This document shows, piece after piece, positions 7,718 to 60,229 of a DNA stretch of 64,000 nt (the stretch's first letter is position 1; every line of letters starts with the position of its first letter). The stretch comes from a virus (taxonomy: Duplodnaviria; Caudoviricetes), in the IMG/VR virus record IMGVR_UViG_3300027917_004314. One strand, given 5' to 3'. The notes beneath the pieces were generated by a model, which did no database searches, had not been told where the DNA came from, and saw only the letters and a program-made list of their open reading frames with translations. Position numbers and translations under genes: made by a program.

Positions 7718-8284
7718 ATGAAAACATTAAATATTCGCAAGGGAAAGCATTTTACTGGGAAGGCAAAAGTCTTTGATAAAGAAATTTATATAGATACTAA
7801 CGACGGCGCCGGCTTTCATGAAGTATTCCAGGAAATGGAAGAACTTATAGAAATGTTATCTAAAGGACATCTTGGTCCTGGTTTCGAGCGCATGTGGGAT
7901 ATAGAAGATATGAAACAAGATGTATCGTTGTCCATGCTGGAAGCAATTGTAAAGTACAATCCAGACAGTGGAAAATTGTCCACTTTCCTGTGGGCCGTAG
8001 GCAGAAATAAAGCTATTGACAACTATCGTAAAGCTGCTATTATTAGGGGGAGAATAAAGTATTTAGACTACATCGAAAAAGCGATGCCATATACCTACGA
8101 CCCCGGTATAAAAATAGAAGTTTTACAACGTTCGGAAAGTTGGGGCGATAAGTGGAAGACCATTATGCTCCGGATTTTCATTAACGGTGATCAAATATCT
8201 GAAGTGGCCAAGGATGAAGGTTTTACACCTTGGGGGCTTACTAGAGCTGTAAGAAGGAAGTTGAAAGAAGCAAGAAAAGTATGA
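7718..8284 (+). CDS. Phage sigma70-family (ECF-like) sigma factor
   Basis: Region-2-like EDMKQDVSLSMLEAIVKYNPDSGKLSTFLWAVGRNKAIDNYRK; region-4-like HTH ISEVAKDEGFTPWGLTRAVRR. Confidence 0.75.
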   Translation: MKTLNIRKGKHFTGKAKVFDKEIYIDTNDGAGFHEVFQEMEELIEMLSKGHLGPGFERMWDIEDMKQDVSLSMLEAIVKYNPDSGKLSTFLWAVGRNKAIDNYRKAAIIRGRIKYLDYIEKAMPYTYDPGIKIEVLQRSESWGDKWKTIMLRIFINGDQISEVAKDEGFTPWGLTRAVRRKLKEARKV

Positions 8285-12371: not shown

Positions 12372-12374
12372 TTG

Positions 12375-34259: not shown

Positions 34260-34286
34260 ATTTTTTTGAAAACGGAGATACACGAA

Positions 34287-36865: not shown

Positions 36866-38719
36866 ATGGCATTTAAACAAAAAAGAAACGCTTTAGACGA
36901 CTGGAAACCAGAAAATAGTTTTGATTCTCTTAAGAGAGAATTTATGAAGGTCGATCCAGTTACTTTTGCAGAGACTTTCCTCACTCTTGATGGAAAGCCT
37001 TTTCGTATTACGGGCAACGGATGGAAATTCATAGCGGATATATATAGACATATCTCTGTGGTTTCAATGTCGAATGAAGGTAAGCCGGTCGTAATAGTGA
37101 AAGGCAGACAGGTCGGCGCGACAACCATGGCGTCTGCCATGGAATTGCACATGGTGGCAAGCGGAACATACGGAAGAAACGGACAACCTCCTGTTAGGGT
37201 AATGCATGCGTTTCCACAGTTGGAAATGATGCACGGCTTTGCCAAAGATAAGCTGGAAAAAATGATTTTAGAATCAATACAAATTCCAGATTTTGATGAC
37301 AAACATAGTCCAGGCAAAATGAAACCCTTCATTAATGCTCAGAAGGATTCGGCTAGAGACGCCACTGATGCACTGCGATATAAACAATTCAAGTATGGAA
37401 ATACTTTGTGGTGCGAATCAATAGGTAACGAGGGGACGAGAGTTATAGGTAGAACTTTTGACGTTTGTTTCTTCGACGAAGTCCAAGATATGAGCGAGGT
37501 GGCAATAGCCAAGACAATCAAGTGCCTTACTCGCGCTCAACACGGACCACAGCCTGGTGGGGTGCAAGTATTTTTTGGTACCCCAAGACAAAAGGGAACT
37601 TTATTCCATAGAATGTGGGAAGACTCAGATCAGCGCAGATATTATTTAAAATGTGCTGATTGCAAAAATTATTTCCTATTGTATACTCCTGGCTCTGACA
37701 AATGGGAAGAAGAAATTTGGTTATATGAAAATATAGTAAAATGTCCCAGCTGCGGCCATGAACAAGATAAAGTTATGGCGATTGAACATGGCAAATGGCT
37801 CCCTACGCCGGGCAAAGAAGATTCTAACTACATAGGTTTTCATTTTAATCAGCTATTTATTCCAGAATTTACTAAAGAAGTGATAGTAAAGGAAAAGCCT
37901 GAGCATAACACTAGAAACTCAGAAATGATTTTCAACAATGAAGTGCTCGGGGAGTTTCATTCTGGTGCCGGCCTTCCCATCACATTTGAAGAAATTTATC
38001 GGATGTGTAAAGATCAAGACCGTTCAGTACCAAAATTCATACCGAAGGGGGAAAGGCTTTCATACCTCGGTATGGACTGGGGAGGTAAACCAGACATAGA
38101 CAACGTTAAGAGAGGTCAATCTTTTTCTTGTGGCGTTGTGTTGACCGTAGACCATGACGAGAGATATCTCGTAGAATTCGGAGAAAAACTGAAACGATTG
38201 GATCGTGAAAGTAAGATGAGTTTTGTTGATGAAATGTTTCGCATATACGGCGTTAAGAACGCTATGGGCGATATTGGCTTTGCAGAAGACATTACTAACG
38301 ACCTCAAAATGAAGTATGGCGAGAAATATAAAAGTGTTAGGAGTTCCGGGATGGTTTCTGGTGGTGTAAAATATAATAGAGATGAATTAGAAATAGTGGT
38401 AGACAAAGATAAAATTATTGGAGAAGTCTTTGAATTGCTGAGGAGAGGCAGAATTAGATTTCCTTGGGCAAGTTATGAAAAAATTGCGTGGCTGATTAGA
38501 CATTGTTGCTCTATGGAAAGCAAAATCGTCACTAGACAGGGTCAGCCGCATCAGACATATATGAAGGGCAAAGAACAAAACGACGGACTTATGGCACTGA
38601 TTTACGCTTATTTGGCTTACAAATTTGATAAAACTCGTGGTTTTAAAGTAAATCCGAACGTGCCCAGCAGCACTATATTTCCAAAACCAGTTCTTGCATA
38701 TATACCAAAAAATATATAG
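36866..38719 (+). CDS. terL: Terminase large subunit (GpA-like with Zn fingers)
   Basis: KGRQVGATT, FFDEVQD, GTP, CADC/CPSC, NEVLGE, LGMDWG nuclease motif. Confidence 0.9.
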   Translation: MAFKQKRNALDDWKPENSFDSLKREFMKVDPVTFAETFLTLDGKPFRITGNGWKFIADIYRHISVVSMSNEGKPVVIVKGRQVGATTMASAMELHMVASGTYGRNGQPPVRVMHAFPQLEMMHGFAKDKLEKMILESIQIPDFDDKHSPGKMKPFINAQKDSARDATDALRYKQFKYGNTLWCESIGNEGTRVIGRTFDVCFFDEVQDMSEVAIAKTIKCLTRAQHGPQPGGVQVFFGTPRQKGTLFHRMWEDSDQRRYYLKCADCKNYFLLYTPGSDKWEEEIWLYENIVKCPSCGHEQDKVMAIEHGKWLPTPGKEDSNYIGFHFNQLFIPEFTKEVIVKEKPEHNTRNSEMIFNNEVLGEFHSGAGLPITFEEIYRMCKDQDRSVPKFIPKGERLSYLGMDWGGKPDIDNVKRGQSFSCGVVLTVDHDERYLVEFGEKLKRLDRESKMSFVDEMFRIYGVKNAMGDIGFAEDITNDLKMKYGEKYKSVRSSGMVSGGVKYNRDELEIVVDKDKIIGEVFELLRRGRIRFPWASYEKIAWLIRHCCSMESKIVTRQGQPHQTYMKGKEQNDGLMALIYAYLAYKFDKTRGFKVNPNVPSSTIFPKPVLAYIPKNI

Positions 38720-38728
38720 AGGTGACTA

Positions 38729-40750
38729 ATGGTAAATAGAAGGAATGATCGAAAACCCGCTAAGATTAGGGTGACGCCAAGAAGGGCTGCTGACGTTACG
38801 GAGTATAGAAAGGCCGAACTTTCAACAGATGTAGACAATGGGATTATATCAGAAGGTACGAGTTATGCCGGTAGTCGACTTAACAGGAGTAATCCTACAG
38901 TTGAGAATGCGCCGCTTGACAGTGATAGGCTAAATCGTGGTGCATGGCTTTCGTCTGGAGACAAGACGATTACCGAAACAAGGAAGAAAGTTAGTTTGAT
39001 TAATGGCGGTGCATCAAAAACTGCCGTTGGTGCTGTTGCACATAGTGATACATATTTGAAAACAGCTGCAGCAGAAGCAGCCAGAGAGTTACAAAAAACC
39101 GCTGCCTCTGTTGGATCTGTAGGTGGAACGGCAGGCACCTCTGCGGGGAGCACTGTAGAGAGACTTGCCCCAGAAGTTTATAGTCCGCTATTCACTATGG
39201 CAAATCTTAATTTGCCTCGTGATAGGATAACTATCAATGCCTGGTGCAGAAATTTTTTCTTATTGCATCCAATAGTAAGAAACGCAATTACATTACATGC
39301 AACATATCCTATCAGCAAATTAAATATAAAATGCCAGGATAAAAGGGTACTTCAATTTCACGAAGACATGATAGAGGAAATGGATTTGATGGGCGCGCTT
39401 GGAGATATTTCTCTCGAGTACTGGAAATTGGGCGAATGTTTCCCATACGCCGAGCTAGATGAAGAAAGAGGAAAATGGTCCAAGATCGTAGTTCAGAACC
39501 CGGACTATGTTCATGTGAAGAAAACTGTACTATCAGGTGATCCCATTATATCGCTAAAGCCTGATGCTGTACTCCAGCGTCTTGTAATGAGCAATAATCC
39601 TGCAGACATGCGACTTAGAAGACAGATTCCGGAGAAAATTATCTATCACGTTAGAGCGCGCCAAGATATACCGCTTGATAACTTTAATGTCTCTCATCTA
39701 AAGTTGCTTTCTAGTCCATACGATGTGAGAGGTACAAGCATTATAGTTAGTGCATTTAAAGACCTCATGCTCTATGACAAAATTCGTGAATCCAAATTTG
39801 CACAAGCGGACTCAATGATTAATCCTATTACACTCATTAAAGTGGGTGGCAACGAAGATGGCGACTATAGAGCAACGCAAGAGGATTTAGAGTTCTTCCG
39901 TGAAATTTTTGAAGAAGCCGAGTATGATAAGAATTTCAAGCTTATTACGCATGCCGGCGTAAAAGTAGAGCGTGTTGGTTATACTGGACAAGTATTAGAA
40001 ATTTCTGGAGATATGGAACTTATTATCAAAAACATTTATACTGGTTTGATGGTTCCTCCGGCAGTCGTTGACACTGAAAGTGCTGTTTACGCATCTGCTT
40101 CTATCGGCTTGGAAGTGTTAAGGCAAAGGTATTTCAATTTTAGAAATATGATGGCCAAGTGGCTTGTAAATAAGATTTTTGCTCCTATTAGTGAAATTCA
40201 AGGTTTTTACGAGTATAAAAACAAAGAGAAAAGATTAATAGTTCCAGAAGTAGAGTGGAATCATATGAATCTCTATGATCTACAAGACTATATTTCAAAT
40301 ATTACTGGCATGGTAAGCTCGAAACAGGCCTCTGTTCAAACTTTGTACCGCAGCATGGGGCTTAACTATGAGGATGAGAAAATAAAGATGCGACAAGAAT
40401 CCATTGACGAAGCCATACGCAGAAGGGAAGAGATGGCTCTTGGAACTATGACACTTACTGAATTGCGTTCGCTGGATCCAGAAAAGCCAATTATGGAAGC
40501 CATTGATTCTAGGGAACGAGAAGCTGAGCCTGCTGTTCCACCAGAAGCTGGTATGCCGGCGGGCGTTATGCCGCCGGGAGCCGAGATGGGAGCTGGTCCG
40601 TTGGGAGGTCTGCCAGAACTTGCTCCTCCGCCAGGAGGAGCGTTGGAAACGCCCCCAGGTGCGGGAGCCCCTCCAGGTGCTGGAGTTACACCGCCACTAG
40701 GGCCTGGAACCCCTGGCGGAGCAGGTGGGCCAGGCGGGCTAGGTGTATAG
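38729..40750 (+). CDS. Portal protein
   Basis: Directly follows terL; HPIVRNAITLHATYP, GECFP, PYDVRGTSII, clip/stem-like region; Pro/Gly-rich tail. Confidence 0.75.
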   Translation: MVNRRNDRKPAKIRVTPRRAADVTEYRKAELSTDVDNGIISEGTSYAGSRLNRSNPTVENAPLDSDRLNRGAWLSSGDKTITETRKKVSLINGGASKTAVGAVAHSDTYLKTAAAEAARELQKTAASVGSVGGTAGTSAGSTVERLAPEVYSPLFTMANLNLPRDRITINAWCRNFFLLHPIVRNAITLHATYPISKLNIKCQDKRVLQFHEDMIEEMDLMGALGDISLEYWKLGECFPYAELDEERGKWSKIVVQNPDYVHVKKTVLSGDPIISLKPDAVLQRLVMSNNPADMRLRRQIPEKIIYHVRARQDIPLDNFNVSHLKLLSSPYDVRGTSIIVSAFKDLMLYDKIRESKFAQADSMINPITLIKVGGNEDGDYRATQEDLEFFREIFEEAEYDKNFKLITHAGVKVERVGYTGQVLEISGDMELIIKNIYTGLMVPPAVVDTESAVYASASIGLEVLRQRYFNFRNMMAKWLVNKIFAPISEIQGFYEYKNKEKRLIVPEVEWNHMNLYDLQDYISNITGMVSSKQASVQTLYRSMGLNYEDEKIKMRQESIDEAIRRREEMALGTMTLTELRSLDPEKPIMEAIDSREREAEPAVPPEAGMPAGVMPPGAEMGAGPLGGLPELAPPPGGALETPPGAGAPPGAGVTPPLGPGTPGGAGGPGGLGV

Positions 40751-40800: not shown

Positions 40801-41070
40801 ATGAAAAAGGAAGATGTAAATTTCAAAAAAGATTGTCAGAAATATCATGACTCAGTGTGTACGCTACTGAAACAAGGAAAAGTAAAAGAATCTAATGAGT
40901 TAATTGATAAAATAAGCAATTATCTTCGCCAATGGGAAGATTTTCAAAGGTCAGTATATATAAAAGTTAATGCTCTTAAATCTCTATATGCTGCTGTTGT
41001 TTTTGAACAAAGAAAAGCCGTTGAGAAAATTATAAAAGCTGGAGGCGACAGGAATAATGACCAAGAGTAA
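40801..41070 (+). CDS. Small hypothetical protein
   Basis: ORF after the portal gene. Confidence 0.55.
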   Translation: MKKEDVNFKKDCQKYHDSVCTLLKQGKVKESNELIDKISNYLRQWEDFQRSVYIKVNALKSLYAAVVFEQRKAVEKIIKAGGDRNNDQE

Positions 41071-42860: not shown

Positions 42861-45800
42861 ATGGCTACAGTAGAGTATAAGTGTTCGTGGTGCAAAAATC
42901 CCATATCTGTAGAGGAAGACGAGAATGCCAACACTGACATTAAAGCCAGTGGTGTGTGCAGAGAGTGTGAGCTAAAACAATTAAAGGAGACAACCATTCC
43001 CATGACTAAGAGAAAGGTTTTTAGGTTTAGGGAAAGCGGCGTAAACGAATTGGCAGAAAAACTTGAAAATCGTTTGTCGACAATGATCGCTCGCGTTAGA
43101 GAGTTGGAATCAGAAAATGTAGCAGACGATTCGCTAGCGCCAGTGGCTTTAATGCGTTTGACTGAAATTAAAGATCCAGATGAACTTTTGAAAACATATG
43201 ATAGAGATGATATTATTATAGAGGAAAAGCTAGACGGATGGAAGGTTCAGGCCATCAAAAAGGACGGCGAGGTAAAGATATATAGTCGTAGAGGAGAAGA
43301 AAAGACAGAAAACTTTCCTGATATAATAAGTGCGCTTGGCAACCTGCCTGATGGCACGCTGGTAGAAGGCGAACTTGTATATTGGCACAACGGAAAACAA
43401 GATGTAGGAAAGGTTACATCGTTGGCTGGGAGTAAACCTGAAACATCGCTAGAAAAAGCTAAAGAGTTGCCCGGCACAATAAAAATACATTTGTATGACG
43501 TTCTATGGCATAAAGGAAAGAATGTTTCCAAAGAGTCTTTTTCTAAAAGAAGACAAACCTTGCAATCATGTGTTAAAACAAGCGATAGGGCACAACTAAC
43601 GAAACAATATCCATTTTCGGATTGGCAAAAGGCAATGAACGCTGCTGTTAAGAGTGGCGGTGAAGGAATAGTATTGAAAATCAAAGAAAAGGGCTATCAG
43701 TACAAACCAAAGGGACAGCAGGAACCAAAACCTAAAAATGTTATGTATAAATACAAGGGTGGTGTTGGGAAAAGCGAATCTGATGACTACGTTGTATATG
43801 ATTATGAAATAACAGAAAAGGGGAAACTTAAAGCCTTTTTTGGCCAGTATTATGGTGGCAAACTATACCATATTAGTGAGATTAGCAACTTTTCCAAGGA
43901 AAATGAAGAGACTATTAAAAATAAATTGAAAAAGGGTAATTTTGTAATTGAAATAGGATTTCAAGAGCGGCAGCCGGGAGGGCTTAGGCACCAAAAATTT
44001 GAGAGATTTAGAGATGATAAAAAGCCAAAAGACGCAACTATGCATGAATTTCATGTTGAAAACATAGATGAATTCAAAATGGCAGAAAAGAAAGCGTCAT
44101 TTTTATTGTCAAAAAGGGCAACTTATGCAGACGAATGGCTTAAAATTCTAGAGCAAGCTGTCATGCAACTATATCCCTCCGGCCTGCCACAAATTTCTGG
44201 TGTTGATTTTCCTGCCATATATTACTTGGTATCGAGGCTTGAATCAAACGATAGGAACGATGTAATTGGTGATGCTGGTAATTCATTTGGTAGAACTCAA
44301 GTACATGGCCCATATTTTATGAGATATCTTGCACAGGATCCCAGGATCAAGCATCTCACGGGTTTGTCTTCACAAGATTTAAAACAGATGGCTGACACGT
44401 GGATGCATACTAAAAGAAATCTCAGTGGTTTGTGGCAACAGGTACCAGTTGACCAAGACACGGCCAGGGCCTATATGGCCGATAAAAAGTTGGTGATCCA
44501 TAGAAAAGAAGGCACAACAATAAGGCGAAGTCCAACCAGTGGGCCGGGCATTATTAAGTTGCGTGGCGACAAATTTGTTGGATATATAATTAATTTGGAT
44601 AAGTTAAGACACATGGGACTTACGATTACCGACGGTGTGTTAAGCAAACTTCATCAAATTTGTAACACTTTCATAACTTGGGGCGTAGCTAATAGTGCTA
44701 TAGCTAAGCTATTTATTGCTCAGAAGAATCCTGTGGCACATGCAAAATTCCATAGGTCTTTTAACAGTAGAAATATAGGCAGAGACCCAGTTTTGCAATC
44801 CGTTATAGATAGTATTTCGCAAAAAGATTTTGCAAACAAGGTTAAGATAGTGACGTCTGATGTAGCCCGTTATGGATATGATACTACAGCGCCAGGAGCA
44901 TTTAATATATATCAGCTTATTTTTATAGCAAACGCTAGTGGTGCGGGTAGGGTAAGAGACTTTTTGCGCAATAGAAGGGCATTTGCTGCCGGTAACCTCC
45001 ATTACATCCAGAGTAGCAGATTTAAACGAGCCATGAGGTGGATTCAAAGAGACCCGAAAATGCCCGCCAATGTACAATACATTGCGCGACTCTTATTGAC
45101 TGATTTACCTCCGCAGGGTGGTATGGCCGGATTTGTTTCGCGAAAGTTCTCAAATATAGATTTTCCTCTAAGCAAAAAGGTCTATGCCAGCGAAGCAGAG
45201 GAAGAGTTTGAAAAAGAAGAAACCACTGATCCGGCAAAGCCATGGTTTATAATAGAACTAGAGGATGAATTTTTTACAAAGTTGCGCCAGCTAATAGGCG
45301 AAGATGCCACGGTGCTAATTATAGTAAGAAAAAAATTATCTGAACGTGTTGGCAAAGAATTAGAGGAATATGAGCTTATCCCGCTTTATAGGCAAGACAT
45401 TATAAAATACATTACGGAAAATGTAGAAGATATTAAGTCTAAATTGTTGAATCCAGATTACAATCCGTTTGTCGAATATCTGTTAAGAAATTGGGATATT
45501 AAGCTTATAGCTCCTAAGTCTGTCGCAATGCCTACGGAACTAGGGCCAACCGATAGAGACGATGAATTTTTTGAAGAAGAGACCAAACCAGAAGCAGTCC
45601 CGTGGCGGCCAAAATTGGGGAACCAATTGATTTCAAAGAGGGCTGATTATGTAAAACCGGGCACTTTATATTTCCCTGGACAATACGCTGATGCAATTAG
45701 ATCTGGCAAACGCAGGATGACCATAAGGCCAAATGATGTGCCTGTCCAAATTGACGAGGTAATAAGATGTATTACTTACTCTGGTGGAGTTATTTGTGAC

Positions 45801-48800
45801 GTCAAAATAGTTGCCAAAAATGTAATGAGTATTAATCGCATAGGTAAAGCTTATGGCAGTCGTATGGCTAAATCATTGGCACAAAAATTTGGTCCTAAGA
45901 AAAGATTTATAGTTATTAAGTTTGAGCCTGTAGATAACCTTAATGCTGCAGATGACGATGACGACAATAATGAAGAGAAAATGTCTGAAGTACTAATAGA
46001 CAAGGATAAAAAACTTACAAGAGGCCAAATTAAAACGCACTATTCGAAACCAGCGATTCGTAAAAAAATAATGTCGCGCATCAAAGACAACCCTGTGATA
46101 GTATATATCGGTACTGGTACCAACGAAAAGATCTTGAAACGCAATCATGATGGTAAGGAAATTATAATAACAAATGATGACCCGCAAAAAGACGAAGACT
46201 CTAACAATTATTTCTATTGGGTTAAAAGGAGAGTGTTGTCGTTTCACCAAGTGTTTGGCACTAAAACCAATTTGGGCTTCGTTGATTTAGACATACATGG
46301 AGACTTTCCTCTATCTAAAGCTAAAAAATATGCGAACGAAATCAGCAAGGCCATTAAAAATAAGTATAATGTGGGTACTACCATTTTTCAAAGCGGTGGT
46401 AGTGGTTTACATGTAGAGTTTAAACTCAGCAGCGAAATGTCTATAGACAAGCTTCGCGGCGAGCTTAAGAAAATGTTGGATGCCATTAACGAAGATTGGG
46501 GTGATGTGACAACTGGTGTTGTAAAAGGTAGTGGGATGAGATCTGATGTGTCTACCCTACATAATAAGGGTAGCATTAGAGTGCCGGGTTCTTTTGGTGA
46601 AAGTCACGGAAACGTGAAAAAATCAGTAGGTTCTGAACAAGATACTGCTGAGAACAATTATAACAATGGCGGCTTCGGACAATTATATACGCAAGAAATA
46701 ACCGAGCCGTTTCCAGATCCGCTAAAAGAGGTAGCCCCAATGCAGGGTGAGGGGCCAGTTGATAGTTATATAGGATATAACACCGTAGAGGACGGAAAAT
46801 TTGCCTCAGCTAAGAAAAAAGTACTTATGTTGGTGGCACCAAAAGAATTCTATGAGCCTGAGTATTTTATCCCTCGCAGAATTTTTGCGGAAAAATATGG
46901 TTTTGATGTGTCAGTAGTTTCTAGTGGCCATAGCGCTGTTGGTGCTCAAGGAACTGAAATTGCAGTAGTTCCAATATCTGAAATAGATGTGGCCGACTTT
47001 GATTCTTTCTTTGTGGTTGGCGGCAAAGGGATGGTGGAGTTTTCCAAAGACAAAGATGCACAAAAATTGCTGAAAACTTTTGTTCGTAAGAAAAAACCTG
47101 TAGCCATGATTTGCCATGGTCCACTTCTTGCTGTTGAAACTGGTATTATAAAGGGCAGACAAGTTACTGGGTGGCCAGATATTGTGGGCAAAGTACGCAG
47201 AGCTAAGGGTACCTGGACTGGGATGCCGGTAGAAAGAGACGGGCTGCTGTTTACTGCAATTGGCCCAGAAGACGCAGAAAACTTATCTATAGTCTTATCA
47301 GAATTTCTCAAAGGAGAAAAAACACTCGTTCCTGTGAAAGAGAAATTTCTTGATTGGAAAGAGGCCTCGCAGGTAATAAATAGTATTTGGAAATTTGCTG
47401 CTGGCCTAAGTGACGAAGAAGAGCTGGCCAGATTGATGAGAGAACAGCAAGAGGAAATAGAAGAAGAGGAAGAAGGGGAAGAAGAGAAAGAGGTCATGAT
47501 TCCTGAGGATAAGGAAGCGCTCATAGAAATGCAGCATCGAGAGGAGTTGCTCAGGAGACAACAGCAAATAGAAAGATCACGCGCTGAAAGGGAACGTCGT
47601 GAAGAACAGGAAATGGAAAGGCGTCGAGAATTGCCCGAAGAATATGAGGAAGAGGAACCCGAGCTAGAAAAACCCAGAGCAGTAAAGTTTAAGGATATCG
47701 TACAAATTGAGAAAGAAGAGGAAGAACCGCTGGCCGAAGAAGAGGGCCTGGAACCATCGGAAGAATTTAGCCGAATGTTATCCTCTGTAAAAGAAGAATT
47801 GTCTAGTATACTAGAAGATATTGGGGATTTTGGTGAAGACCCCAATATGGCAGAACCAGAAGAAGATGAAGAAGAAGATTACGAGTCAACAATGGAGAAG
47901 GCGCCAGAAACTATTTTTGGAATTAAACTAAAAAGTCCAACCGACAAATCTGGCCAAGTACTTGACCGATGGTTTGAGAAAAACGAAATTGTCATGCCAG
48001 AAATGTCCGAGGGGGCCAGGAAGCTATTTACAATAAAAAACATGAAAGATGGTGCTTCTTTAACGAAACTGTTTAGCGATCCTTTGGCATGGGATATCCT
48101 GCACGAAGAACCCCACCTGTTGCAAAATTGGATTTTGCCAGCTCTGATCGTGGGTATAGGACAAAGATGGTTCAACAACAATGGTAGTAGACCACAACTT
48201 GGTACTAAAAAATTTAAAAATGTTGGTAGAACGCCTTTTGGCATGTTTGATGAAGATGACCTAGCCCTTCTCAAAAAAGGTGCAACAATAGAGGAGCTGC
48301 CCAGTGCCAGGAAGTATATACGCATGATAAATCAGTTGGTGACCAAATATGCTAACTATTATTTCTCGTATGGGTATAGGAGAAGTAAAAGAAATCCACA
48401 AGGTGCTTTACCTATAGGTGGTTATATATATAAGGCCTTAGGAAGGGCTATGACTAAAGAAATTGCTGAAGTTAAAGGTTTCAAGGAAATAAGGTTTCCT
48501 GTTTGTGCTGTGTGTAAGGCAAAACAAAAGAACGAGAAAATGATTCTTCGAAGCATGGTTAAAGTCGCTGACAAACCAGCCAGATGGGAGTGTGAGACTT
48601 GCAAAAGAGAGCATGAAGCAAATAGTTTCTTAATTGATGAATTAGAACAAAGACTTAGGACAATAGAAGACAGTGCCGGTGGGCTAAAAACTAGAATAGA
48701 ACAAGATAAGGTTGCTGTAAAAGATTTGGAAGACGAAGAGGCAATCGAACGACTTACCAATAAAATTGAAGATCGGACCCAAAGGTTAACCTCGTTTATT

Positions 48801-51017
48801 ATAGAGTCTGATTCAATCAAGAAAAAACGTGACGAGTTAAATAATACGCAGAAAATATTAAGCGGACAATTAGCAGTTCCATATTGGCATACTTGGTGCC
48901 CGAACACAACTTGTCCCGGCCGCAAAGTGCCTCTCACTTCAATAAATTGGGACGCAGATGTGTGGAAAAGTGATGCCGAGGGTGCTTTAGCGGCTAGGTT
49001 ATATGAAAGATATGGTATTAAAAGACCTGGCATGATGGAGGCCGTTGATGAGCCAACTGCGAAGCCAATAAAAAGAAAAATCTCTTCGCAGCACATTCCG
49101 CCAGAATGGCTACTAGATGTAGAGTTTATATGTCCACATGATGGTATTAAATTTACGCTAAGGGATAGTAAATATAAGGGGCACAGAAATCTAGGCGGGT
49201 TTTTGTGGGAGCCATATCGAAGGTTGGAGTGGGCTACTATGCATGAAGCTGCCCCCAAAGAAGTAGAAGTGGCGATTGCTATGGCCGGCGCCGAAGAGAA
49301 AATGGATGCTGAGTTGTCAAAAGTACTTTTCACACATTTGTCCTTAATTGGCAGAACAGTTTTCTCGCGTGAAAAAAGGAAAAAAGATCAACAATTTGTA
49401 GAGTGGTTAACAGGTCAGCTCAAGTTACATAAGTACAACCTGGAAAAAGTTAAGCAAATTCCTATCTATAGCTCCAAGCAGAGAGAGAAAGTGTTGTATG
49501 ATATAATAAAAGATTCTTCTAATCTAGATCCTTTGTCTTTCGTGGCTTGGCTTACGGAGACTGCCATAGCTGGCAAGTTTGTTCAAGATAGAGAGAAAGA
49601 TATTGGCCAGGAAAACTTTGTACTAAAGACAACGAGAAATCAGCGTAGAGACGAGATATATATACCTATTTTACAAAATTGGGTTGACAAAATGCTTTCT
49701 GAAGAAAACGGATTTGAGAATTATAGAATAGAGGACATGTTAACCAACCATCTTGAAGATGGACTCTACGGTGATGGACCAGGAACTTTCTTTGTTGCAA
49801 AGATTGAAGATGGTGTGTTGCCACATAGGGCAACCAAGAAGCACGAAGGAGTGTTTGGCTTTAGATGCAATCTTATGCTTTCTGTGAAGTTTCCTGCAAA
49901 ACCAAAATATAGTGTGCCAATACATAAAGGCATTGAGGGATTTGAAGAAGAATATTTAGATGAGTTAGAACAAAAAGAAAGAATACGAGCAAGTAGGACT
50001 GCAGAGTCAGGTTTGTATCCTCGTATGCTGAGAGTTATTGGCGTGTGGCAGCTGTCACCAGGACAAGTTGAATCTGTTCTTAAACAAGCCAATGGCGAGG
50101 CGATGCTGAAAGGCGAAGCATGCATAGCGAAGGGTCCAGGTGGTACCGGCCTGCATACGTTTGCTTTAAACAACCAAGATAAAAATATAGTCGGCGATAT
50201 GGTTGGGCACGATTTTTATGTTGCTACACTAGATAAAGACGAGACATCTTTGTCTGTAGGAGATTATGTTCTGGTACAAGCTTTACTTATGCCAGGAGAT
50301 TACTGGTGGGCGCCAATTGCTATGGTCCAAAATCTAAGAAAAGAGAGCGACACAGCTAGAAATATCTTTGGTAGACTTGGTGCTCTAATATCTGACGAAG
50401 TGTCACCAGAAGAAGATAGAAGACTGCTGCAAGAATTTGTGCAGGATGTTAAGGAATATGGTGATGACCCGAAAGAAATGGAAATGATCGTTGGAGATTT
50501 AATTGATAGGTTTGAGGCAGCAAGAAAAAAGAAAAGGTCGTCGTTTATTCTTAGCGTTAGAGAAGCAAAAGATCCTCTATCAAAATATAAACAAAAACGA
50601 GAGTTTGATGAGACTCCTGAACCCGAAGGCGAAGTCTCTAAAGAGAATAAACATCGATTTGTGATTCAAAGACACGTAGCTGAAAAAGTTGGTGAACATT
50701 GGGATCTACGACTAGAAAACAATGAAGGTGCCTTATCGTCTTGGTCTATACCAAAACATAAGTTTCCTAAAGATAAAGAGAAACTGTTGGCCGTCAAAAC
50801 GGAAGACCATCCAATATCTTATATGAAATTTAAAGGAGAGATTCCGGAGGGCTACGGTGCTGGTAAAGTAGAAATTCATGATAGCGGCACATTTGAGGAA
50901 GTAGAATGGAACGACTCGAAAATAGTTTTTAAGCTTAAAGGAGAAAAAGAGAAAGGGACATATAAGTTATTTAGAACCGATGGGAAAAATTGGATGATCA
51001 TGGAACATTACGGATAG
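42861..51017 (+). CDS. 2718-aa polyprotein: Zn finger, ATP-dependent DNA ligase, lysozyme/SLT-like domain, ASCH, AEP (LigD-Pol-like) polymerase, DJ-1/PfpI, paralog of ORF 8281, LigD 3'-phosphoesterase
   Basis: EEKLDG/VEGELV/YDVL/EGIVLK/RFRDDK; ESND..GDAGNSFGRTQV; IRSGKRRMTIR; FVDLD/SGGSGLHV/IRVPGS; FYEPE/AMICHGP; REFDETPEP/FVIQRH..HWDLRLE/EDHPISY. Confidence 0.88.
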   Translation: MATVEYKCSWCKNPISVEEDENANTDIKASGVCRECELKQLKETTIPMTKRKVFRFRESGVNELAEKLENRLSTMIARVRELESENVADDSLAPVALMRLTEIKDPDELLKTYDRDDIIIEEKLDGWKVQAIKKDGEVKIYSRRGEEKTENFPDIISALGNLPDGTLVEGELVYWHNGKQDVGKVTSLAGSKPETSLEKAKELPGTIKIHLYDVLWHKGKNVSKESFSKRRQTLQSCVKTSDRAQLTKQYPFSDWQKAMNAAVKSGGEGIVLKIKEKGYQYKPKGQQEPKPKNVMYKYKGGVGKSESDDYVVYDYEITEKGKLKAFFGQYYGGKLYHISEISNFSKENEETIKNKLKKGNFVIEIGFQERQPGGLRHQKFERFRDDKKPKDATMHEFHVENIDEFKMAEKKASFLLSKRATYADEWLKILEQAVMQLYPSGLPQISGVDFPAIYYLVSRLESNDRNDVIGDAGNSFGRTQVHGPYFMRYLAQDPRIKHLTGLSSQDLKQMADTWMHTKRNLSGLWQQVPVDQDTARAYMADKKLVIHRKEGTTIRRSPTSGPGIIKLRGDKFVGYIINLDKLRHMGLTITDGVLSKLHQICNTFITWGVANSAIAKLFIAQKNPVAHAKFHRSFNSRNIGRDPVLQSVIDSISQKDFANKVKIVTSDVARYGYDTTAPGAFNIYQLIFIANASGAGRVRDFLRNRRAFAAGNLHYIQSSRFKRAMRWIQRDPKMPANVQYIARLLLTDLPPQGGMAGFVSRKFSNIDFPLSKKVYASEAEEEFEKEETTDPAKPWFIIELEDEFFTKLRQLIGEDATVLIIVRKKLSERVGKELEEYELIPLYRQDIIKYITENVEDIKSKLLNPDYNPFVEYLLRNWDIKLIAPKSVAMPTELGPTDRDDEFFEEETKPEAVPWRPKLGNQLISKRADYVKPGTLYFPGQYADAIRSGKRRMTIRPNDVPVQIDEVIRCITYSGGVICDVKIVAKNVMSINRIGKAYGSRMAKSLAQKFGPKKRFIVIKFEPVDNLNAADDDDDNNEEKMSEVLIDKDKKLTRGQIKTHYSKPAIRKKIMSRIKDNPVIVYIGTGTNEKILKRNHDGKEIIITNDDPQKDEDSNNYFYWVKRRVLSFHQVFGTKTNLGFVDLDIHGDFPLSKAKKYANEISKAIKNKYNVGTTIFQSGGSGLHVEFKLSSEMSIDKLRGELKKMLDAINEDWGDVTTGVVKGSGMRSDVSTLHNKGSIRVPGSFGESHGNVKKSVGSEQDTAENNYNNGGFGQLYTQEITEPFPDPLKEVAPMQGEGPVDSYIGYNTVEDGKFASAKKKVLMLVAPKEFYEPEYFIPRRIFAEKYGFDVSVVSSGHSAVGAQGTEIAVVPISEIDVADFDSFFVVGGKGMVEFSKDKDAQKLLKTFVRKKKPVAMICHGPLLAVETGIIKGRQVTGWPDIVGKVRRAKGTWTGMPVERDGLLFTAIGPEDAENLSIVLSEFLKGEKTLVPVKEKFLDWKEASQVINSIWKFAAGLSDEEELARLMREQQEEIEEEEEGEEEKEVMIPEDKEALIEMQHREELLRRQQQIERSRAERERREEQEMERRRELPEEYEEEEPELEKPRAVKFKDIVQIEKEEEEPLAEEEGLEPSEEFSRMLSSVKEELSSILEDIGDFGEDPNMAEPEEDEEEDYESTMEKAPETIFGIKLKSPTDKSGQVLDRWFEKNEIVMPEMSEGARKLFTIKNMKDGASLTKLFSDPLAWDILHEEPHLLQNWILPALIVGIGQRWFNNNGSRPQLGTKKFKNVGRTPFGMFDEDDLALLKKGATIEELPSARKYIRMINQLVTKYANYYFSYGYRRSKRNPQGALPIGGYIYKALGRAMTKEIAEVKGFKEIRFPVCAVCKAKQKNEKMILRSMVKVADKPARWECETCKREHEANSFLIDELEQRLRTIEDSAGGLKTRIEQDKVAVKDLEDEEAIERLTNKIEDRTQRLTSFIIESDSIKKKRDELNNTQKILSGQLAVPYWHTWCPNTTCPGRKVPLTSINWDADVWKSDAEGALAARLYERYGIKRPGMMEAVDEPTAKPIKRKISSQHIPPEWLLDVEFICPHDGIKFTLRDSKYKGHRNLGGFLWEPYRRLEWATMHEAAPKEVEVAIAMAGAEEKMDAELSKVLFTHLSLIGRTVFSREKRKKDQQFVEWLTGQLKLHKYNLEKVKQIPIYSSKQREKVLYDIIKDSSNLDPLSFVAWLTETAIAGKFVQDREKDIGQENFVLKTTRNQRRDEIYIPILQNWVDKMLSEENGFENYRIEDMLTNHLEDGLYGDGPGTFFVAKIEDGVLPHRATKKHEGVFGFRCNLMLSVKFPAKPKYSVPIHKGIEGFEEEYLDELEQKERIRASRTAESGLYPRMLRVIGVWQLSPGQVESVLKQANGEAMLKGEACIAKGPGGTGLHTFALNNQDKNIVGDMVGHDFYVATLDKDETSLSVGDYVLVQALLMPGDYWWAPIAMVQNLRKESDTARNIFGRLGALISDEVSPEEDRRLLQEFVQDVKEYGDDPKEMEMIVGDLIDRFEAARKKKRSSFILSVREAKDPLSKYKQKREFDETPEPEGEVSKENKHRFVIQRHVAEKVGEHWDLRLENNEGALSSWSIPKHKFPKDKEKLLAVKTEDHPISYMKFKGEIPEGYGAGKVEIHDSGTFEEVEWNDSKIVFKLKGEKEKGTYKLFRTDGKNWMIMEHYG

Positions 51018-52328: not shown

Positions 52329-52685
52329 ATGGGAAACAATTTTAGGTTATCCAACAGAATAGAAAAAACAGTGCAGACGCCAGCTCAGCGTACAGCTGAG
52401 TCATTGTTCAAAATTATTCAATTTATGTTTTATAGAGTGCCCGATAAGAATAAAGCGAAATTTCTGTCAAGAGTTAGAGGAAAAATAGTTAAATTAAATC
52501 CGGGTGCTTTGGGAACAAAACCGTTGCCGCCAACAGCAGCAATAGGTCAGGCAATCGGGCTGGCTAAAAATCTATTATATGGCCTTAACCCTAATTTTAT
52601 TCAAGAAGTTTTATCGGAGTTGGTAAAACTGTTATCTACAACTCCGCAACCAATAAAGCCTCTACCGCCGAGTGCTGGGGCATAA
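52329..52685 (+). CDS. Hypothetical protein
   Basis: Abutting ORF. Confidence 0.6.
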   Translation: MGNNFRLSNRIEKTVQTPAQRTAESLFKIIQFMFYRVPDKNKAKFLSRVRGKIVKLNPGALGTKPLPPTAAIGQAIGLAKNLLYGLNPNFIQEVLSELVKLLSTTPQPIKPLPPSAGA

Positions 52686-52689
52686 ATAT

Positions 52690-54681
52690 ATGTTTTATAT
52701 CAGTAAAAGAGCTGCCTGGATGCGAAGCATATGGATTAATCCAGACGATGGTTCCACGATACAAGTAGATGGCAAGACCCATGACGATGTGTTTTTTGAA
52801 CATATCGATCAGTTTGGAGATGCTGTACCTGAAGACATCAAAGAAATAATTAAGAGAAGGGAAGAAAAACCAGAGCACTCAGAAAAAGCTTACGAGATTT
52901 TGGATGGTCTAAAAGAGAGTTGGCCCAGAATTACAATATTTGGCAGTGAAGTTGGCCTAGACATGCCAGATAAATCTAATCTATTGTTGCACTTTGCACA
53001 ACAAACACTTATGAAAAGTGGGCTTAGATATGGATCCATGACAATCAACTTTGGTGTCGGCGGCTTTATCGAAGATGTTTCGTATGATGATTTTATACGA
53101 GCTGACAGGTGGTCTGATATTTTAAAGCCATATAGGTCGTTTATCACTGCGTTTGCATTGTCAAAGCGTGCCCAGGAACCGATAATTCCTACTCCGCATA
53201 TTGTGATCGAACCATACGAGCCTGCAATCGCAAAGGCACTTACTAGAATACCAAACCATTTAAAAATGAACGTCACAAAAGTAGTAGTTCACAGTGGTGG
53301 CGGTTCTGGTCATATGGGGCATGTCGAAATGGGCCCTGGGAAAGATCCAAGAGAGATACATATCTTTAAAGATAGGATCCGAGAAAAGGTGCGTCAAATG
53401 TTCGGTACTATACAACCTACAGCACAGCAGCTAGAACAAGCAACAGAACGCGCCTTGATTGAAACCATCATACACGAAACGGGACATATAGGACCGACAA
53501 GAACCCAAGAACAGATTTTACAAGGTCCGTTCTTTGGAGAACCAGAGGCCGAAGCACTCGTCAGACAGCAGCTGCCGACAATTGCATCGTTTGAAGATGC
53601 ATTGGTGAAGGCATCCCTTGATTTGGAAGAGATTAGAGAGAAGCTATTACCAAATGCTCCTATTGGAGAGCCTAACTTGCACTTTGTGGCTCAATCCATG
53701 AACCAAAAAAAATATTATCTTGTCAAGAGTGGAGTCCGTCTACTCACAGGTGGCGATATAAAACCCGCCGCAATCGAAATTAAAGAGGCAGAACAATTTA
53801 ATAATATCGCTTCTCGAAACATCAAAGTTTCTAAAATTATTGGAGTTATTGCGGCAGAAGTAGGAGTTCATCCATATAACGATTTGAATTTTGTGGTTGC
53901 TTTGGCAAAATGGCAAGATTGCAACGGTTTAGAGCCTACTGGCAAATTAGATGCTGGTACTTTATCCAAGCTTGGTAAAAATCATAGTCACTTAGAGACC
54001 CCTAAAAATTTTGGTGTTGTGGTTCCTCAACACCTGTATCGTGGCGCAATAATTGAGAATATGAAACAACTAGAAGCGTTGCGTGATAGGTTTGGTGTAC
54101 AAAGGGTTGTTTCCCTGCACAACCACCCTGATATAACTAGGATGTGTCACATCGCTGGTTTAGAACATGTTGTAGCACCTTTAGAAACAGGATCGCCAAG
54201 TGACTTTGGTAGAAAAATTCTTGGAAAATCCATTTCTAGCTTTTTAAAAGAAAAACCAACATATATTCATTGTTTTTATGGTCAAGACCGCACAGGAGGC
54301 GTTGTAGCGCGCTTCAGGACGGAAACTGGATGGCCATGTGAAGCAGCCTATGCAGAAGCAAAAGCTTATGGTTTTAAAGACATGTTTGCCGATCTTATCG
54401 ATTGGTTTTCTGAGCCATGCGGCAAGCCACCAGTTGATACCGATAAGATAAGGAAATTATTGAAGAATAAATCTCCTTATAAGAATCCAGAAACTTCACA
54501 ACCTCTAGAACAGTCGTTATTGGAACCCCACCTAAATCCAGTTCCTAATGATATGCCATTTGGCAATCCATATCAAGATGCTAGTGAACATGTCTATGTT
54601 ACGTGGGCTGATACTATTAACAGCGTGGCGCCAACAGGGATTTTAAGCATTCCTGTGCCATCAGGGAGTACGGGCATATGA
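52690..54681 (+). CDS. Multidomain protein: zincin-like HExxH domain, peptidoglycan-binding domain, protein tyrosine/dual-specificity phosphatase
   Basis: IIHETGH; WQDCNGLEPTGKLDAGTLSKL; NFGVV..HLYRGA and IHCFYGQDRTG P-loop. Confidence 0.8.
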   Translation: MFYISKRAAWMRSIWINPDDGSTIQVDGKTHDDVFFEHIDQFGDAVPEDIKEIIKRREEKPEHSEKAYEILDGLKESWPRITIFGSEVGLDMPDKSNLLLHFAQQTLMKSGLRYGSMTINFGVGGFIEDVSYDDFIRADRWSDILKPYRSFITAFALSKRAQEPIIPTPHIVIEPYEPAIAKALTRIPNHLKMNVTKVVVHSGGGSGHMGHVEMGPGKDPREIHIFKDRIREKVRQMFGTIQPTAQQLEQATERALIETIIHETGHIGPTRTQEQILQGPFFGEPEAEALVRQQLPTIASFEDALVKASLDLEEIREKLLPNAPIGEPNLHFVAQSMNQKKYYLVKSGVRLLTGGDIKPAAIEIKEAEQFNNIASRNIKVSKIIGVIAAEVGVHPYNDLNFVVALAKWQDCNGLEPTGKLDAGTLSKLGKNHSHLETPKNFGVVVPQHLYRGAIIENMKQLEALRDRFGVQRVVSLHNHPDITRMCHIAGLEHVVAPLETGSPSDFGRKILGKSISSFLKEKPTYIHCFYGQDRTGGVVARFRTETGWPCEAAYAEAKAYGFKDMFADLIDWFSEPCGKPPVDTDKIRKLLKNKSPYKNPETSQPLEQSLLEPHLNPVPNDMPFGNPYQDASEHVYVTWADTINSVAPTGILSIPVPSGSTGI

Positions 54682-55801: not shown

Positions 55802-58800
55802 ATGGCCATATTTAAAACTGCTCAGTTGGAAGTTAGACAGGTACATAATACAGATTTAATGGCATCCTCCAAGCCCATGGAGGCTCTACTCCTTGGCTCT
55901 GAGGCAGCGAAAGCTGACGAACAAATAAAACAACGTTTTGTTAAATTCGCCCAACATTTGAAAAGAGTTGCGCCAAAGGCCAAGGATTTCCTGTACTTTA
56001 GTTGTATTATGATGCATGCAGCAGAGGCTGCACTAATTGATCAGAACACCGGCTTGCCGGTAAAGAATGGTGAAGACGAAGTTACGTCCGAATGGAAAAT
56101 AGATAACAAGGGATCCTGGAAATGGGCCTGTTCTGATCCGAACATTAAGCCTTATAAAAACAACAACGGCGATATTTTTCCAGAAGTAGAGCTTAAAAAA
56201 GCTTATAGAAAATGGATTGGTCGCCCCCTTTGCAAAGATCATCAAAGCGGTTCCGTTGATGGTATTCGTGGTATCATCGTAGATACTTATTATGATGACA
56301 AACGCAAAAGAGTTATTGCCCTATGCGCTCTGGATAAAATTAATTATCCAGATCTTGCTAGAAAAGTTTCTACAGGTTATGCTACAAATGTTTCTATGGG
56401 CACAGCAGTTGGCATATCTATCTGTTTTGAGTGTGGCAATATCGCAAGGGTAGAGGCCGATTATTGTCCATGCGTCAAAACTAAGAAAACTTATGGTGAA
56501 ATTAATATTGACCTCTCGCCCATTGAGTTGAGCCTGGTAGTCACGGGCGCAGATCCTCAAGCCAAATTGAGGAATGTAATCGCCAGTCTTGAAAAATATT
56601 CTAATGAAAAGGGTGAAAGAATTAAGGAACTTAAAAGAGCTGGTTGTGTTACACCAGATGAACTGACGAGGTTGGAGAATGAGATAGTTGATTTAAGGAA
56701 TACTGTGAGAGCAGCAACCAACCTCATGTTTTATAAAGCCGCAGCTGTTGGGCCTGGTGCTGAAAACATAGAACAGGCGAGGAATTTAGGAGAAGTTCTA
56801 AAACATCTGACCAGTCCAGAAGCAAGAAAAAAAGTCGAAAACATTATTACTTCTCTATTAGAAGAGGTCCCTGCAGAAGAGCCAGTTGAGGTGGAACCAG
56901 CAAGTGCTACTCCAAGCACCAAAGATATGGGAGATACTGAAAAAGGGTACACCGGATCCAACTCTGATACTGGACCGCCAGAGTGGTCACCAGAGAGAAC
57001 TGATATTATGAGAATGACCAGTGATAAAACTGCTGATTTAGGAATACAAATAAACGCTATTAATAAGAAGCTGGACGCCATGGAACTTGCACTTCGTGAC
57101 ATGGCAACGGGCGTCCAGGAAGTCACAACACATAAGGAGGAGCAATCAATGTCTGACAAAGAGCTTCGTCAAAGGGCAGCTGCCCGTCGTGCAATGTTTC
57201 AAAAATCTGCCTATCATCAGGGTGGGGGGGATTTGAATGATCCAGCTAATCTTCCATATCCCGTTGATCCATTGAATGATCAACTCAAGACGAAAGGAGA
57301 CAAGCAGATGGAGGGTCAGGGTATGGAGCCTGGAAATGATGGTCTGCACCCAGGTTATGACAGCTTTGGCCAATCCGAAGAGTCCCTAAAGAAAATGCTT
57401 TCTAGGGCTGAATTAGAAGAGAGAAAGATGCGCAGACACGCATTCATGAAGCAGGCTGAGGAGCCAGCGCAAGAGCTGGAGACCAAGAAAACGCCTAGCG
57501 GTGCCACCGTTGCAAAAACCCCGGACGGAAAGGTTATTATGCTTAACAATGATGGCACATACAATGAAGTGGACGATACCCAGATCCAACAGGCTAGAGA
57601 CCTAGTCAAAATGGTTGGTAGGGGCACTCCATCACCCACCAAGAAAGAAGCCTATTGGCAAGGTGGTGGCGGTGTTAATGAGCCACAAACTTATCCGGTT
57701 GACCCCATGAATGATAAGTTGAAAACTGATGGCGATAAGCAAATGGAAGGACAGGGTATGGAGCCAGGTAACGACGGCCTGCACCCAGGTTACCAGAGCT
57801 ATGGTAATGAAGAAGCTCTAAAAAAGAAGCTTCTCCGCGCTCAGCTTCGCGCTAAGTTTATTGTAGCCTACAAAAATGAAGATAAGACTGTCATTGACAA
57901 GAAAAATTCTCGTTGGGAAATCTATGCTGGCCCAGATAAGATTCTTGAGGCGACTGGCGCAGAGATCTACGAGGATGAGCTAGAACAGAATTGGGAATTG
58001 CTGGCGAGCAAAGAGTGGGGTCGCAAGGCAATCGCAGCTATTCGAGAGAAAGGTTTCGAACGTGTAGCATGGTTGTTGAAGGGAGAAAGTCTTGAAAAGA
58101 CTGCTCAGCCACCAATGCCTCCACCCACAGCAGGTGGCGAAAAGCCAATGCCGCCTCCTCCAGCAGTCGAAGGGCTACCAGAAGCTGCTCCTGAGGAAGA
58201 GGCGAAGGATCCTGTTCAATCAGCTCTAGATACGCTATCTGAGAGTTTGGAGAGCGCAGAGAAGGCTATGGGCGATCTTAAGGATGCCCTTGAGGAAGTA
58301 ACTGGCAAATCAGAAGGTGCTGAGCTTCCAGATGTTGGTGGCGCCGAGGCCGACGATGCAGAGCAACTTGCAATGGCAGAAGTCGCATCTCAGATCAAGG
58401 AAGTATATTCTGGCCTAGATGAAAGCGCAGATGAGCTGGCTATGCTAGCTGAGTCGCTTGAATCACGTTTCAAGGCTGGAAAGGGTTCAGAGGATGCGGT
58501 AACCGCCGAACTTCTTCGTCTTGCGCCTGAGGCAGTAAACGAGAGTGCTGAACTTCGCAGAGAAGCATCCCTTGTTATTGATGCCGCCAAGAAGAAAGAA
58601 AAGAAGGAAGAGGAAGAAGATGAAAAAGAGGAGAAAGAAGATGACAAGAAAGATAAGAAGGGCAAGGGCAAACTGCCGCCTGCTCTTGAAAAAGCTATAG
58701 AGAAGAAGAAAGAAAAGAAGGAAAAGAAAGAAGACAAGAAAGAAGATAAGGAAGAGAAAGAAGATGAGGAAGAGAAAGGGGAGAAAAAAGAAAAGAACAA

Positions 58801-60204: not shown

Positions 60205-60229
60205 AAACTATCTATTGGAGGTTTACAAA

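Follow-up and report, generated by a model that had tools for sequence, protein, structure and literature searches.

A giant head-module protein of an uncultured huge phage carries all three LigD module types among recurrent junction motifs

Positions 42861-51017 on the plus strand of a 64,000-nucleotide (nt) stretch of phage DNA (Duplodnaviria; Caudoviricetes), hereafter the window, are occupied by a single frame of 2718 codons without an internal stop. The window corresponds to positions 32001-96000 of the 161-kb IMG/VR record IMGVR_UViG_3300027917_004314, which is classed as a 'provirus' and estimated to be 40% complete. The product of this open reading frame (ORF), which we call the giant, contains an ATP-dependent ligase (LIG), a polymerase (POL) and a 3'-phosphoesterase (PE), the three module types of the bacterial end-joining enzyme LigD, together with a set of other modules, most of which are parted by a short recurrent motif. 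The start codon is preceded at 5 nt by the Shine-Dalgarno sequence GAGGG. The 2718-amino acid (aa) protein was found again on a 460,921-bp contig, and an identical product is encoded on an independent Logan contig. Homologues from other assemblies, with 80% and 68% identity, match the giant in length and module order, and about 30 further, more distant giants have lengths of 1.5-3.4 thousand amino acids (kaa) on contigs that reach 340 kb. The identical copy on an independent contig and the full-length homologues indicate that the ORF is not an assembly artefact. A preliminary annotation made from the letters of the window, here termed the sequence-only reading, had reported one 2718-aa ORF at this place and had named the misassembly of separate genes as a risk to its interpretation; the ORF was borne out and the risk is excluded by the same evidence. 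The lineage to which the giant belongs consists of uncultured huge phages of ~0.3-0.47 Mb.

The ligase module matches Pfam DNA_ligase_A_M over aa 103-286 (E 2.4e-28), and its six motifs (I, III, IIIa, IV, V and, in the OB domain, VI) are kept in the 23 homologues that have a ligase module. Its nearest solved relatives are of the Lig1/archaeal type (2hiv, E 1e-16, versus E 1e-3 for the LIG domain of LigD, 1vs0). The AEP primase-polymerase gave a weak Pfam match to LigD_Prim-Pol over aa 1119-1215 (16.7 bits, under the cut-off), and profile searches with this module and with aa 405-770 against PDB sequences returned nothing significant; the identity of the AEP module was resolved only by structure prediction. 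In an AlphaFold2 model of aa 405-1265, with a predicted local distance difference test (pLDDT) score of 77, the module best matched the polymerase domain of Mycobacterium tuberculosis (Mtb) LigD (2iru), with a Z score of 17.2 and 211 aligned residues at a root mean square deviation of 3.2. The next matches were Pseudomonas aeruginosa (Pae) LigD (2fao, Z 16.9), an archaeal polymerase of non-homologous end joining (NHEJ; 5dmu, Z 16.3) and Prim-PolC (Z 15.3), and the score against replicative PriS was clearly lower (Z 11.4). The Foldseek E value was 1.5e-6, and the residues D1142-x-D1144, SGGxGxH1184 and R1227-x-D1229 are invariant. Judged by this model, the AEP module is closest to the LigD-type NHEJ polymerase domains. 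The phosphoesterase matches Pfam LigD_N over aa 2603-2705 (E 1.7e-25). Its archaeal and Pseudomonas relatives in the PDB, including 3p43 (E 3e-32) and the PE domain of Pae LigD (2lj6/3n9b), range from E 3e-32 to 2e-18, and its catalytic set (R/D/E, QxH, HxDxR and EDHPxxY) is complete and conserved. The catalytic residues of all three enzymes are near-invariant across sequences that are ~40-50% identical overall, indicating selection on catalysis.

These results agree with the sequence-only reading, which had recognized the same three enzymes from short motifs. K123 in EEKLDG, VDLD, SGGSGLHV, IRVPGS, FVIQRH, HWDLRLE and EDHPISY all lie where it had placed them, and its ligase and phosphoesterase assignments hold on the Pfam and PDB matches given above; its polymerase assignment holds on the structural match to 2iru, despite the weak Pfam score. 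Degenerate catalytic sites, a further risk that it had raised, were not found, as the checked motifs are conserved in the homologues carrying each module. In P0008, a homologue from another metagenome, a LAGLIDADG intein lies within the PE module (aa 2688-3053), which suggests that this module matters.

The motif that parts most of the modules has the consensus (A/S)-S-F-x-(L/I)-S-K-R-A-(D/E)-(Y/F) and recurs at the boundary between LIG and the next module, before ASCH, after AEP, and before and after PE. Among 31 homologues the SKRA tetrapeptide occurs 63 times, concentrated at module boundaries, with Phe at position -3 in 44 cases and Leu/Ile at position -1 in 57. The junctions of the giant lie in linkers of the AlphaFold2 model with pLDDT <50. 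Across the whole 161-kb record SKRA was seen six times versus 0.85 expected, and all six copies fall in three head-module proteins, namely the giant, an 865-aa ORF and a 669-aa ORF. In relatives SKRA occurs 34 times on the coding strand versus twice on the opposite strand, often at residues 4-24 of the ORF. In total, 55 giants hold 148 copies of the motif and 36 stand-alone paralogues of the core (described below) from other assemblies hold none. Sister giants have up to nine copies, and the eight of P0136 lie between mapped Pfam domains. Such a distribution would be expected of a tag at which a polyprotein is cleaved or docked, and by analogy recalls the capsid-targeting leader of phage T4. 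The conserved motif between modules also lends support to the term 'polyprotein', which the sequence-only reading had used for the giant. A complex prediction with aa 1-300 of the prohead-protease ORF and a junction peptide (aa 398-440) scored 0.00, a result that counts neither way. Literature searches for the LSKRA motif or for virion-packaged LigD-like enzymes found nothing relevant, and the junction motif is a new observation. As a separate feature of the 161-kb record, D-G-Y tetrapeptides are the most over-represented in its proteome (for example, DGYL with 19 copies versus 0.71 expected).

Comparison with sister giants shows which parts of the protein are constant. Giants with a C-terminal PE at 52-75% identity replace or supplement LIG and AEP with other modules, including topoisomerase IB (Topoisom_I), a PolyA_pol/CCA-adding head with HD, a 2H (LigT/Acb1-like) phosphoesterase and an ART-PolyVal-like module (28.7 bits, slightly under the cut-off of 31.2). 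PE, alone among the enzyme modules, is kept in nearly all members. Because LIG and POL are replaced by topoisomerase IB, a CCA-adding enzyme or 2H in the sisters, the constant theme is nucleic-acid end processing or counter-defence and not NHEJ specifically. The description of the giant as a 'complete LigD-type toolkit' in the sequence-only reading is thus correct in that LIG, POL and PE are all present, but not in that the ligase is nearer to the Lig1/archaeal enzymes, the modules are spread over 2718 aa and do not make up a LigD, and LIG and POL are swapped in the sisters. Two distant relatives encode the giant as two or three neighbouring genes, indicating that its modules can work as separate polypeptides.

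The region between the acidic stretch and PE, which we refer to as the orphan core, is the only module found in every family member. It contains two invariant Cys clusters of Zn-ribbon character, C1882/C1885/C1911/C1914 and H2010/C2013/C2018/C2091, as well as a coiled-coil hairpin, and was modelled confidently by AlphaFold2 (pLDDT 85; predicted template modelling score, pTM, 0.82). A profile search with the core over 1.84 billion representative proteins retrieved 104 members, which are either giants or stand-alone proteins of ~600-690 aa; about 36 stand-alone forms occur in metagenomes. No match to the core was found in Pfam, PHROGs, Foldseek PDB, BFVD, AFDB clusters or, by shape and by features, the ESM Atlas, and a wide VIA-align search returned generic coiled-coil hairpins only. 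Since the searched model comprised 876 residues, matches to a single domain of the core may be missed. The window itself encodes a 683-aa stand-alone paralogue, which has no Pfam or PHROG match. As this paralogue lacks the junction motif and lies outside the head module, the core is not simply a capsid part. Its gene is located between a sigma-factor gene (7718-8284) and a gene for a trigger-factor-like chaperone (10301-11656). Other phage genes in the window encode an SbcC-like ATPase (2934-5165), a Cas4-like PD-(D/E)XK nuclease (6926-7714) and a DnaE-type polymerase III alpha subunit (12372-15749).

The 'unrelated domains' that had been noticed between LIG, POL and PE are real and comprise ASCH, DJ-1/PfpI, a possible lysozyme-like module, an acidic stretch and the orphan core. 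In the possible lysozyme-like module (aa 444-760), E461-S462 and G-x-T-Q-V are invariant, with the Glu at the end of model helix 46-58, and ESM features give 0.92 to clusters of the SLT domain. Its only structural match is the GH46 chitosanase 4olt (Z 6.9), and a search for stand-alone homologues found none. The lysozyme-like reading is kept as tentative because every hidden Markov model (HMM) test of it failed. The ASCH model matches the ac4C amidohydrolase YqfB (9kyf) with a Z score of 11.4 and a template modelling (TM) score by target of 0.73. The DJ-1/PfpI domain matches its Pfam family over aa 1319-1476 (E 4.7e-30), has a conserved Cys-His elbow and has AtDJ-1D, PfpI, YhbO and PH1704 as PDB relatives. 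It was rejected as a general junction protease because at least eight homologues that lack DJ-1 keep the SKRA junctions. Glu-rich acidic stretches similar to that of the giant occur in the 1385-aa protease ORF (aa 915-1107) and in a 598-aa ORF at 41057-42853 (aa 272-513). The positions of all modules and junctions are listed together with neighbouring genes in Table 1.

Table 1. Features of the giant and related genes in the window
Feature	Position	Strand	Basis or remark
Stand-alone 683-aa core paralogue	8281..10332	+	Three colinear BLAST segments; outside head module, without junction motif
865-aa head-module protein, junction motifs at aa 491, 762	34266..36863	+	Weak DUF5661 match
Large terminase, GpA-type ATPase	36866..38719	+	TerL call
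Portal protein	38729..40750	+	phrog_16240, E 2.8e-58
Giant, whole 2718-aa ORF (P0001)	42861..51017	+	At least 31 full-length or split homologues; identical copy in independent assembly
N-terminal CxxC...CxxC stretch, possible Zn ribbon	42861..42995	+	Sequence reading; alignment occupancy ~10/31 homologues
ATP-dependent DNA ligase, nucleotidyltransferase (NTase) + OB, aa 95-405	43143..44075	+	Pfam; motifs I (K123), III, IIIa, IV, V, VI
Junction motif 1, SFLLSKRATY, aa 412-421	44094..44123	+	Linker pLDDT <50
Possible lysozyme/SLT-like module, aa 444-760	44190..45140	+	Tentative
Junction motif 2, degenerate FPLSKKV, aa 766-777	45156..45191	+	Motif survey, model
Helical module, aa 794-884	45240..45512	+	Model secondary structure
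Junction motif 3, QLISKRADY, aa 920-929	45618..45647	+	Motif survey, model
ASCH domain, aa 932-1026	45654..45938	+	Pfam 20.5 bits (weak); model match
AEP primase-polymerase, NHEJ/LigD type, aa 1036-1260	45966..46640	+	Predicted structure, invariant motifs
DJ-1/PfpI domain, ICHGP Cys-His elbow, aa 1315-1490	46803..47330	+	Pfam, PDB relatives
Glu-rich acidic low-complexity stretch, aa 1500-1689	47358..47927	+	Read from sequence
Family-defining orphan core, aa 1690-2559	47928..50537	+	Invariant columns, AlphaFold2 model
Junction motif 4, variant SSFILSVREAK, aa 2560-2570	50538..50570	+	Motif survey
LigD-type 3'-phosphoesterase (PE), aa 2572-2718	50574..51017	+	Pfam, PDB matches, conservation
669-aa head-module protein, junction motifs at aa 11, 164	52672..54681	+	Weak PTP/DSP-phosphatase-like region
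1385-aa ORF with prohead-protease domain, aa 120-229	55802..59959	+	phrog_18299, E 1e-9

The gene for the giant is located within the head module. The order of genes is TerL, portal, an 89-aa ORF, the 598-aa ORF, the giant, small ORFs, the 669-aa ORF and the 1385-aa protease ORF, and the major capsid protein (MCP) gene follows after further ORFs ~17 kb downstream, beyond the window. The order TerL, portal, 89-aa ORF, 598-aa ORF, giant, protease ORF and MCP is kept in all ten of the related IMG/VR huge-phage loci compared, in keeping with the placement of the gene between portal and prohead protease by the sequence-only reading. In most relatives (L007, L009-L013, L015 and L016) the tblastn match to the portal protein is interrupted at residue 237 or 355 and continues ~1.1 kb later, which suggests an intron or the insertion of an intein or homing element; the portal gene of the window is uninterrupted. 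The homologues of the 669-aa protein in relatives have variable N-terminal modules before the tag. A 277-aa head-module ORF at 60215-61048 on the plus strand has a weak HMG-box-like match (E 0.003) and may encode a DNA-binding internal protein.

With moderate confidence, we favour the interpretation that the giant is a tag-delimited cargo polyprotein that is loaded into the head, and that its payload is a Ku-independent set of enzymes for healing and sealing DNA ends that is used at entry. The giant would consist of independent enzyme modules strung along disordered linkers that carry the tag (A/S)-S-F-x-(L/I)-S-K-R-A, and would be made alongside the head proteins and then loaded into the prohead. 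There the giant would probably be cut or docked at the tags, with the prohead protease, whose gene lies 5 kb downstream, as the most likely agent, and it would then be expelled together with the DNA. In the entered cell the LigD-type AEP polymerase could fill in or extend ends, the LigD-type phosphoesterase could clean 3' ends and the two-domain ATP-dependent ligase could seal them, such that the incoming genome would be sealed, circularised or rejoined before phage genes are expressed. The possible lysozyme-like module may aid passage through the wall. The proposal of virion-packaged cargo, already made in the sequence-only reading, fits the synteny from portal to protease, the polyvalent architecture with swappable payloads, the restriction of the motif to head-module proteins and precedents in the literature. 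The circularisation of the genome or the resealing of nuclease cuts, which that reading had suggested, would be a plausible purpose.

Several observations weigh against this interpretation. Neither the 161-kb record nor any of four related ones, including two with completeness of 75% and 84%, yielded a match to Ku (PF02735). This confirms and extends the earlier remark that the window contains no recognisable Ku gene. These five records (G000-G004), which are 25-84% complete, also contain no other recognised end-bridging factor, and the giant's ligase, by its sequence relationships, is not of the LigD subtype. Neither a MuF domain nor another known capsid-incorporation domain was found. The assignment of the lysozyme/SLT-like module has no support from HMM tests, in that PF01464 (SLT) has no match in the 161-kb record at E <= 10 and a Pfam scan of 24 homologous segments gave no SLT match. 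Among GenBank phages the giant has no relative except for isolated matches to its ligase and DJ-1 domains, and it has no cultured relative. Neither the portal nor the protease ORF nor the MCP contains the junction motif, which indicates that the motif does not mark maturation sites in general and could act in docking or as a linker instead of being cleaved. Finally, the ligase of the giant is the only match to PF01068 or to NAD-dependent ligases in four of the five records (G000, G001, G003 and G004) and could therefore serve replication or packaging instead.

This last observation bears on the alternative that the giant is a late DNA-maturation enzyme or general ligase that is not packaged and mends nicks and gaps in replicated concatemers shortly before packaging or in its course, with its location in the head module reflecting co-expression. 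The lack of a second ATP- or NAD-dependent ligase match in those four records and the proximity of the gene to the terminase and portal genes speak for this alternative, but we consider it rather unlikely, as it leaves unexplained the tag common to head-module enzymes only, the swappable ART-PolyVal, 2H/Acb1-like and CCA-adding payloads, and the possible lysozyme-like module. The records being incomplete, another ligase may also lie elsewhere in these genomes.

The composition of the sister giants raises a second alternative, in which a packaged kit would mainly heal RNA, or nucleic-acid ends generally, as a counter-defence, for instance acting on tRNAs cut by anticodon nucleases. The enzyme module kept in nearly all members is PE, which sisters pair with a CCA-adding/poly(A) polymerase plus HD and with 2H (LigT/Acb1-like), the ASCH domain resembles the RNA-acting YqfB and ZmASCH, and there are weak cross-matches to the RNA-ligase family PF09414. 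Such a role is nevertheless distinctly unlikely for the giant, whose ligase includes an OB domain bearing motif VI and scores 99.7 bits as a DNA ligase versus 23.8 bits as an RNA ligase, and whose AEP module is closest to DNA-repair polymerases of NHEJ; the sisters, moreover, carry topoisomerase IB, a DNA enzyme.

That the core alone is present in every member, and that the acidic stretch is common to other head-module ORFs, could also mean that the giant serves chiefly a structural role, in ejection or in the inner head, much like a component of an ejectosome or inner body. The core and the acidic stretch would then be essential and the enzyme modules dispensable passengers; the possible lysozyme-like module would suit such a protein. 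We regard this as very unlikely in view of the near-invariance of the LIG, AEP and PE catalytic residues at the overall identity given above, and of the untagged stand-alone paralogue of the core outside the head module. Finally, the occurrence of the modules as separate adjacent ORFs in two distant relatives might suggest a chimeric assembly or genes that run on into one another. Such an artefact has a negligible chance of accounting for a frame that has no internal stop, an identical product on an independent contig and homologues of equal length and module order.

The interpretation as head-loaded, tag-delimited cargo can be extended to a wider proposal, which we consider doubtful but possible. 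The orphan core and the F-x-(L/I)-SKRA junctions may together constitute an undescribed capsid cargo platform of huge phages, in which modules would be cut or docked in the prohead at the dibasic tag and swappable payloads would be injected with the genome. In the present phage the virion would deliver an end-joining kit that needs no Ku, and the part of binding or bridging the ends may fall to the core. If the modules are present in the particle, this would be, to our knowledge, the first virus known to bring ready DNA break-repair enzymes (a ligase, a gap-filling polymerase and an end cleaner) into a bacterium, a way of withstanding restriction or CRISPR cuts, or of closing a huge genome, before gene expression. 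The junction motif offers a possible rule for spotting head cargo in uncultured huge phages, and the core, 870 residues long and conserved in every family member, has a confidently predicted fold for which no relative could be detected.

Bacterial LigD has the domain order POL-PE-LIG and works with Ku in NHEJ. The giant resembles it in having a LigD-family PE, an AEP module that is closest in its model to the LigD polymerase domains (Z ~17) and an ATP-dependent ligase with six motifs. In contrast to LigD, its three modules are scattered along 2718 aa and interspersed with five or more others, its ligase is nearer to the Lig1/archaeal enzymes, its gene is part of a head module and the phage records yielded no Ku. 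The presence of all three LigD module types thus does not make the giant a LigD.

Head-loaded enzymes are known from several phages. The internal proteins and Alt of T4 have a capsid-targeting leader that is removed by the prohead protease gp21, and the enzymes are injected with the DNA; the Dar anti-restriction head proteins of P1, such as DarB, likewise travel in the head and enter the cell along with the DNA. Cargo of this kind protects the DNA or prepares the host. The resemblance to the giant lies in the head-loaded cargo, which the giant is proposed to be, and in a short shared N-terminal tag, in the present case a putative one, that marks it. The tag of the giant differs in that it recurs within the protein as well, to either side of each module of the putative polyprotein, and its payload consists of repair enzymes instead of a nuclease inhibitor, an ADP-ribosyltransferase or a methylase-helicase. 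The virion RNA polymerase of N4 and gp16 of T7, the latter with an SLT domain, are giant capsid-stored proteins that are ejected to act first; the giant has no RNA polymerase, and its lysozyme-like module is tentative. Giant phages such as SPN3US pack many ejection proteins that are processed by the prohead protease (PMC10052503).

A further comparison is with polyvalent proteins, which are predicted to enter the cell with the DNA and have variable domain sets (Iyer et al. 2017, PMC5512222). By analogy, the variability, virion neighbourhood and domain types of the giant match those of this class: it is a multi-enzyme protein with at least six recognisable modules, its domains vary in orthologues, its sisters carry ART-PolyVal-like and 2H modules, and PrimPol modules occur in the class as well. 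A text search of PMC5512222 found no LigD-type phosphoesterase, LigD, DJ-1/PfpI, ASCH, DNA ligase module, SKRA motif or orphan core, and topoisomerase is mentioned solely in the reference list. The giant further differs from the class in having no MuF or metallopeptidase anchor.

Phage enzymes that rejoin or circularise phage DNA provide the last comparison. The mycobacteriophages Omega and Corndog encode their own Ku and use the LigD of the host. The gp17 ligase of PhiKMV is reported to rescue phage DNA from Cas12a and EcoRI cuts (bioRxiv 10.64898/2026.09.21.753257). The giant shares with these systems a phage ligation or NHEJ activity, in its case predicted, that would rejoin or circularise the phage's own DNA, whereas the enzymes of PhiKMV, Omega and Corndog are made after entry or are borrowed from the host and are not encoded as head-module polyproteins.

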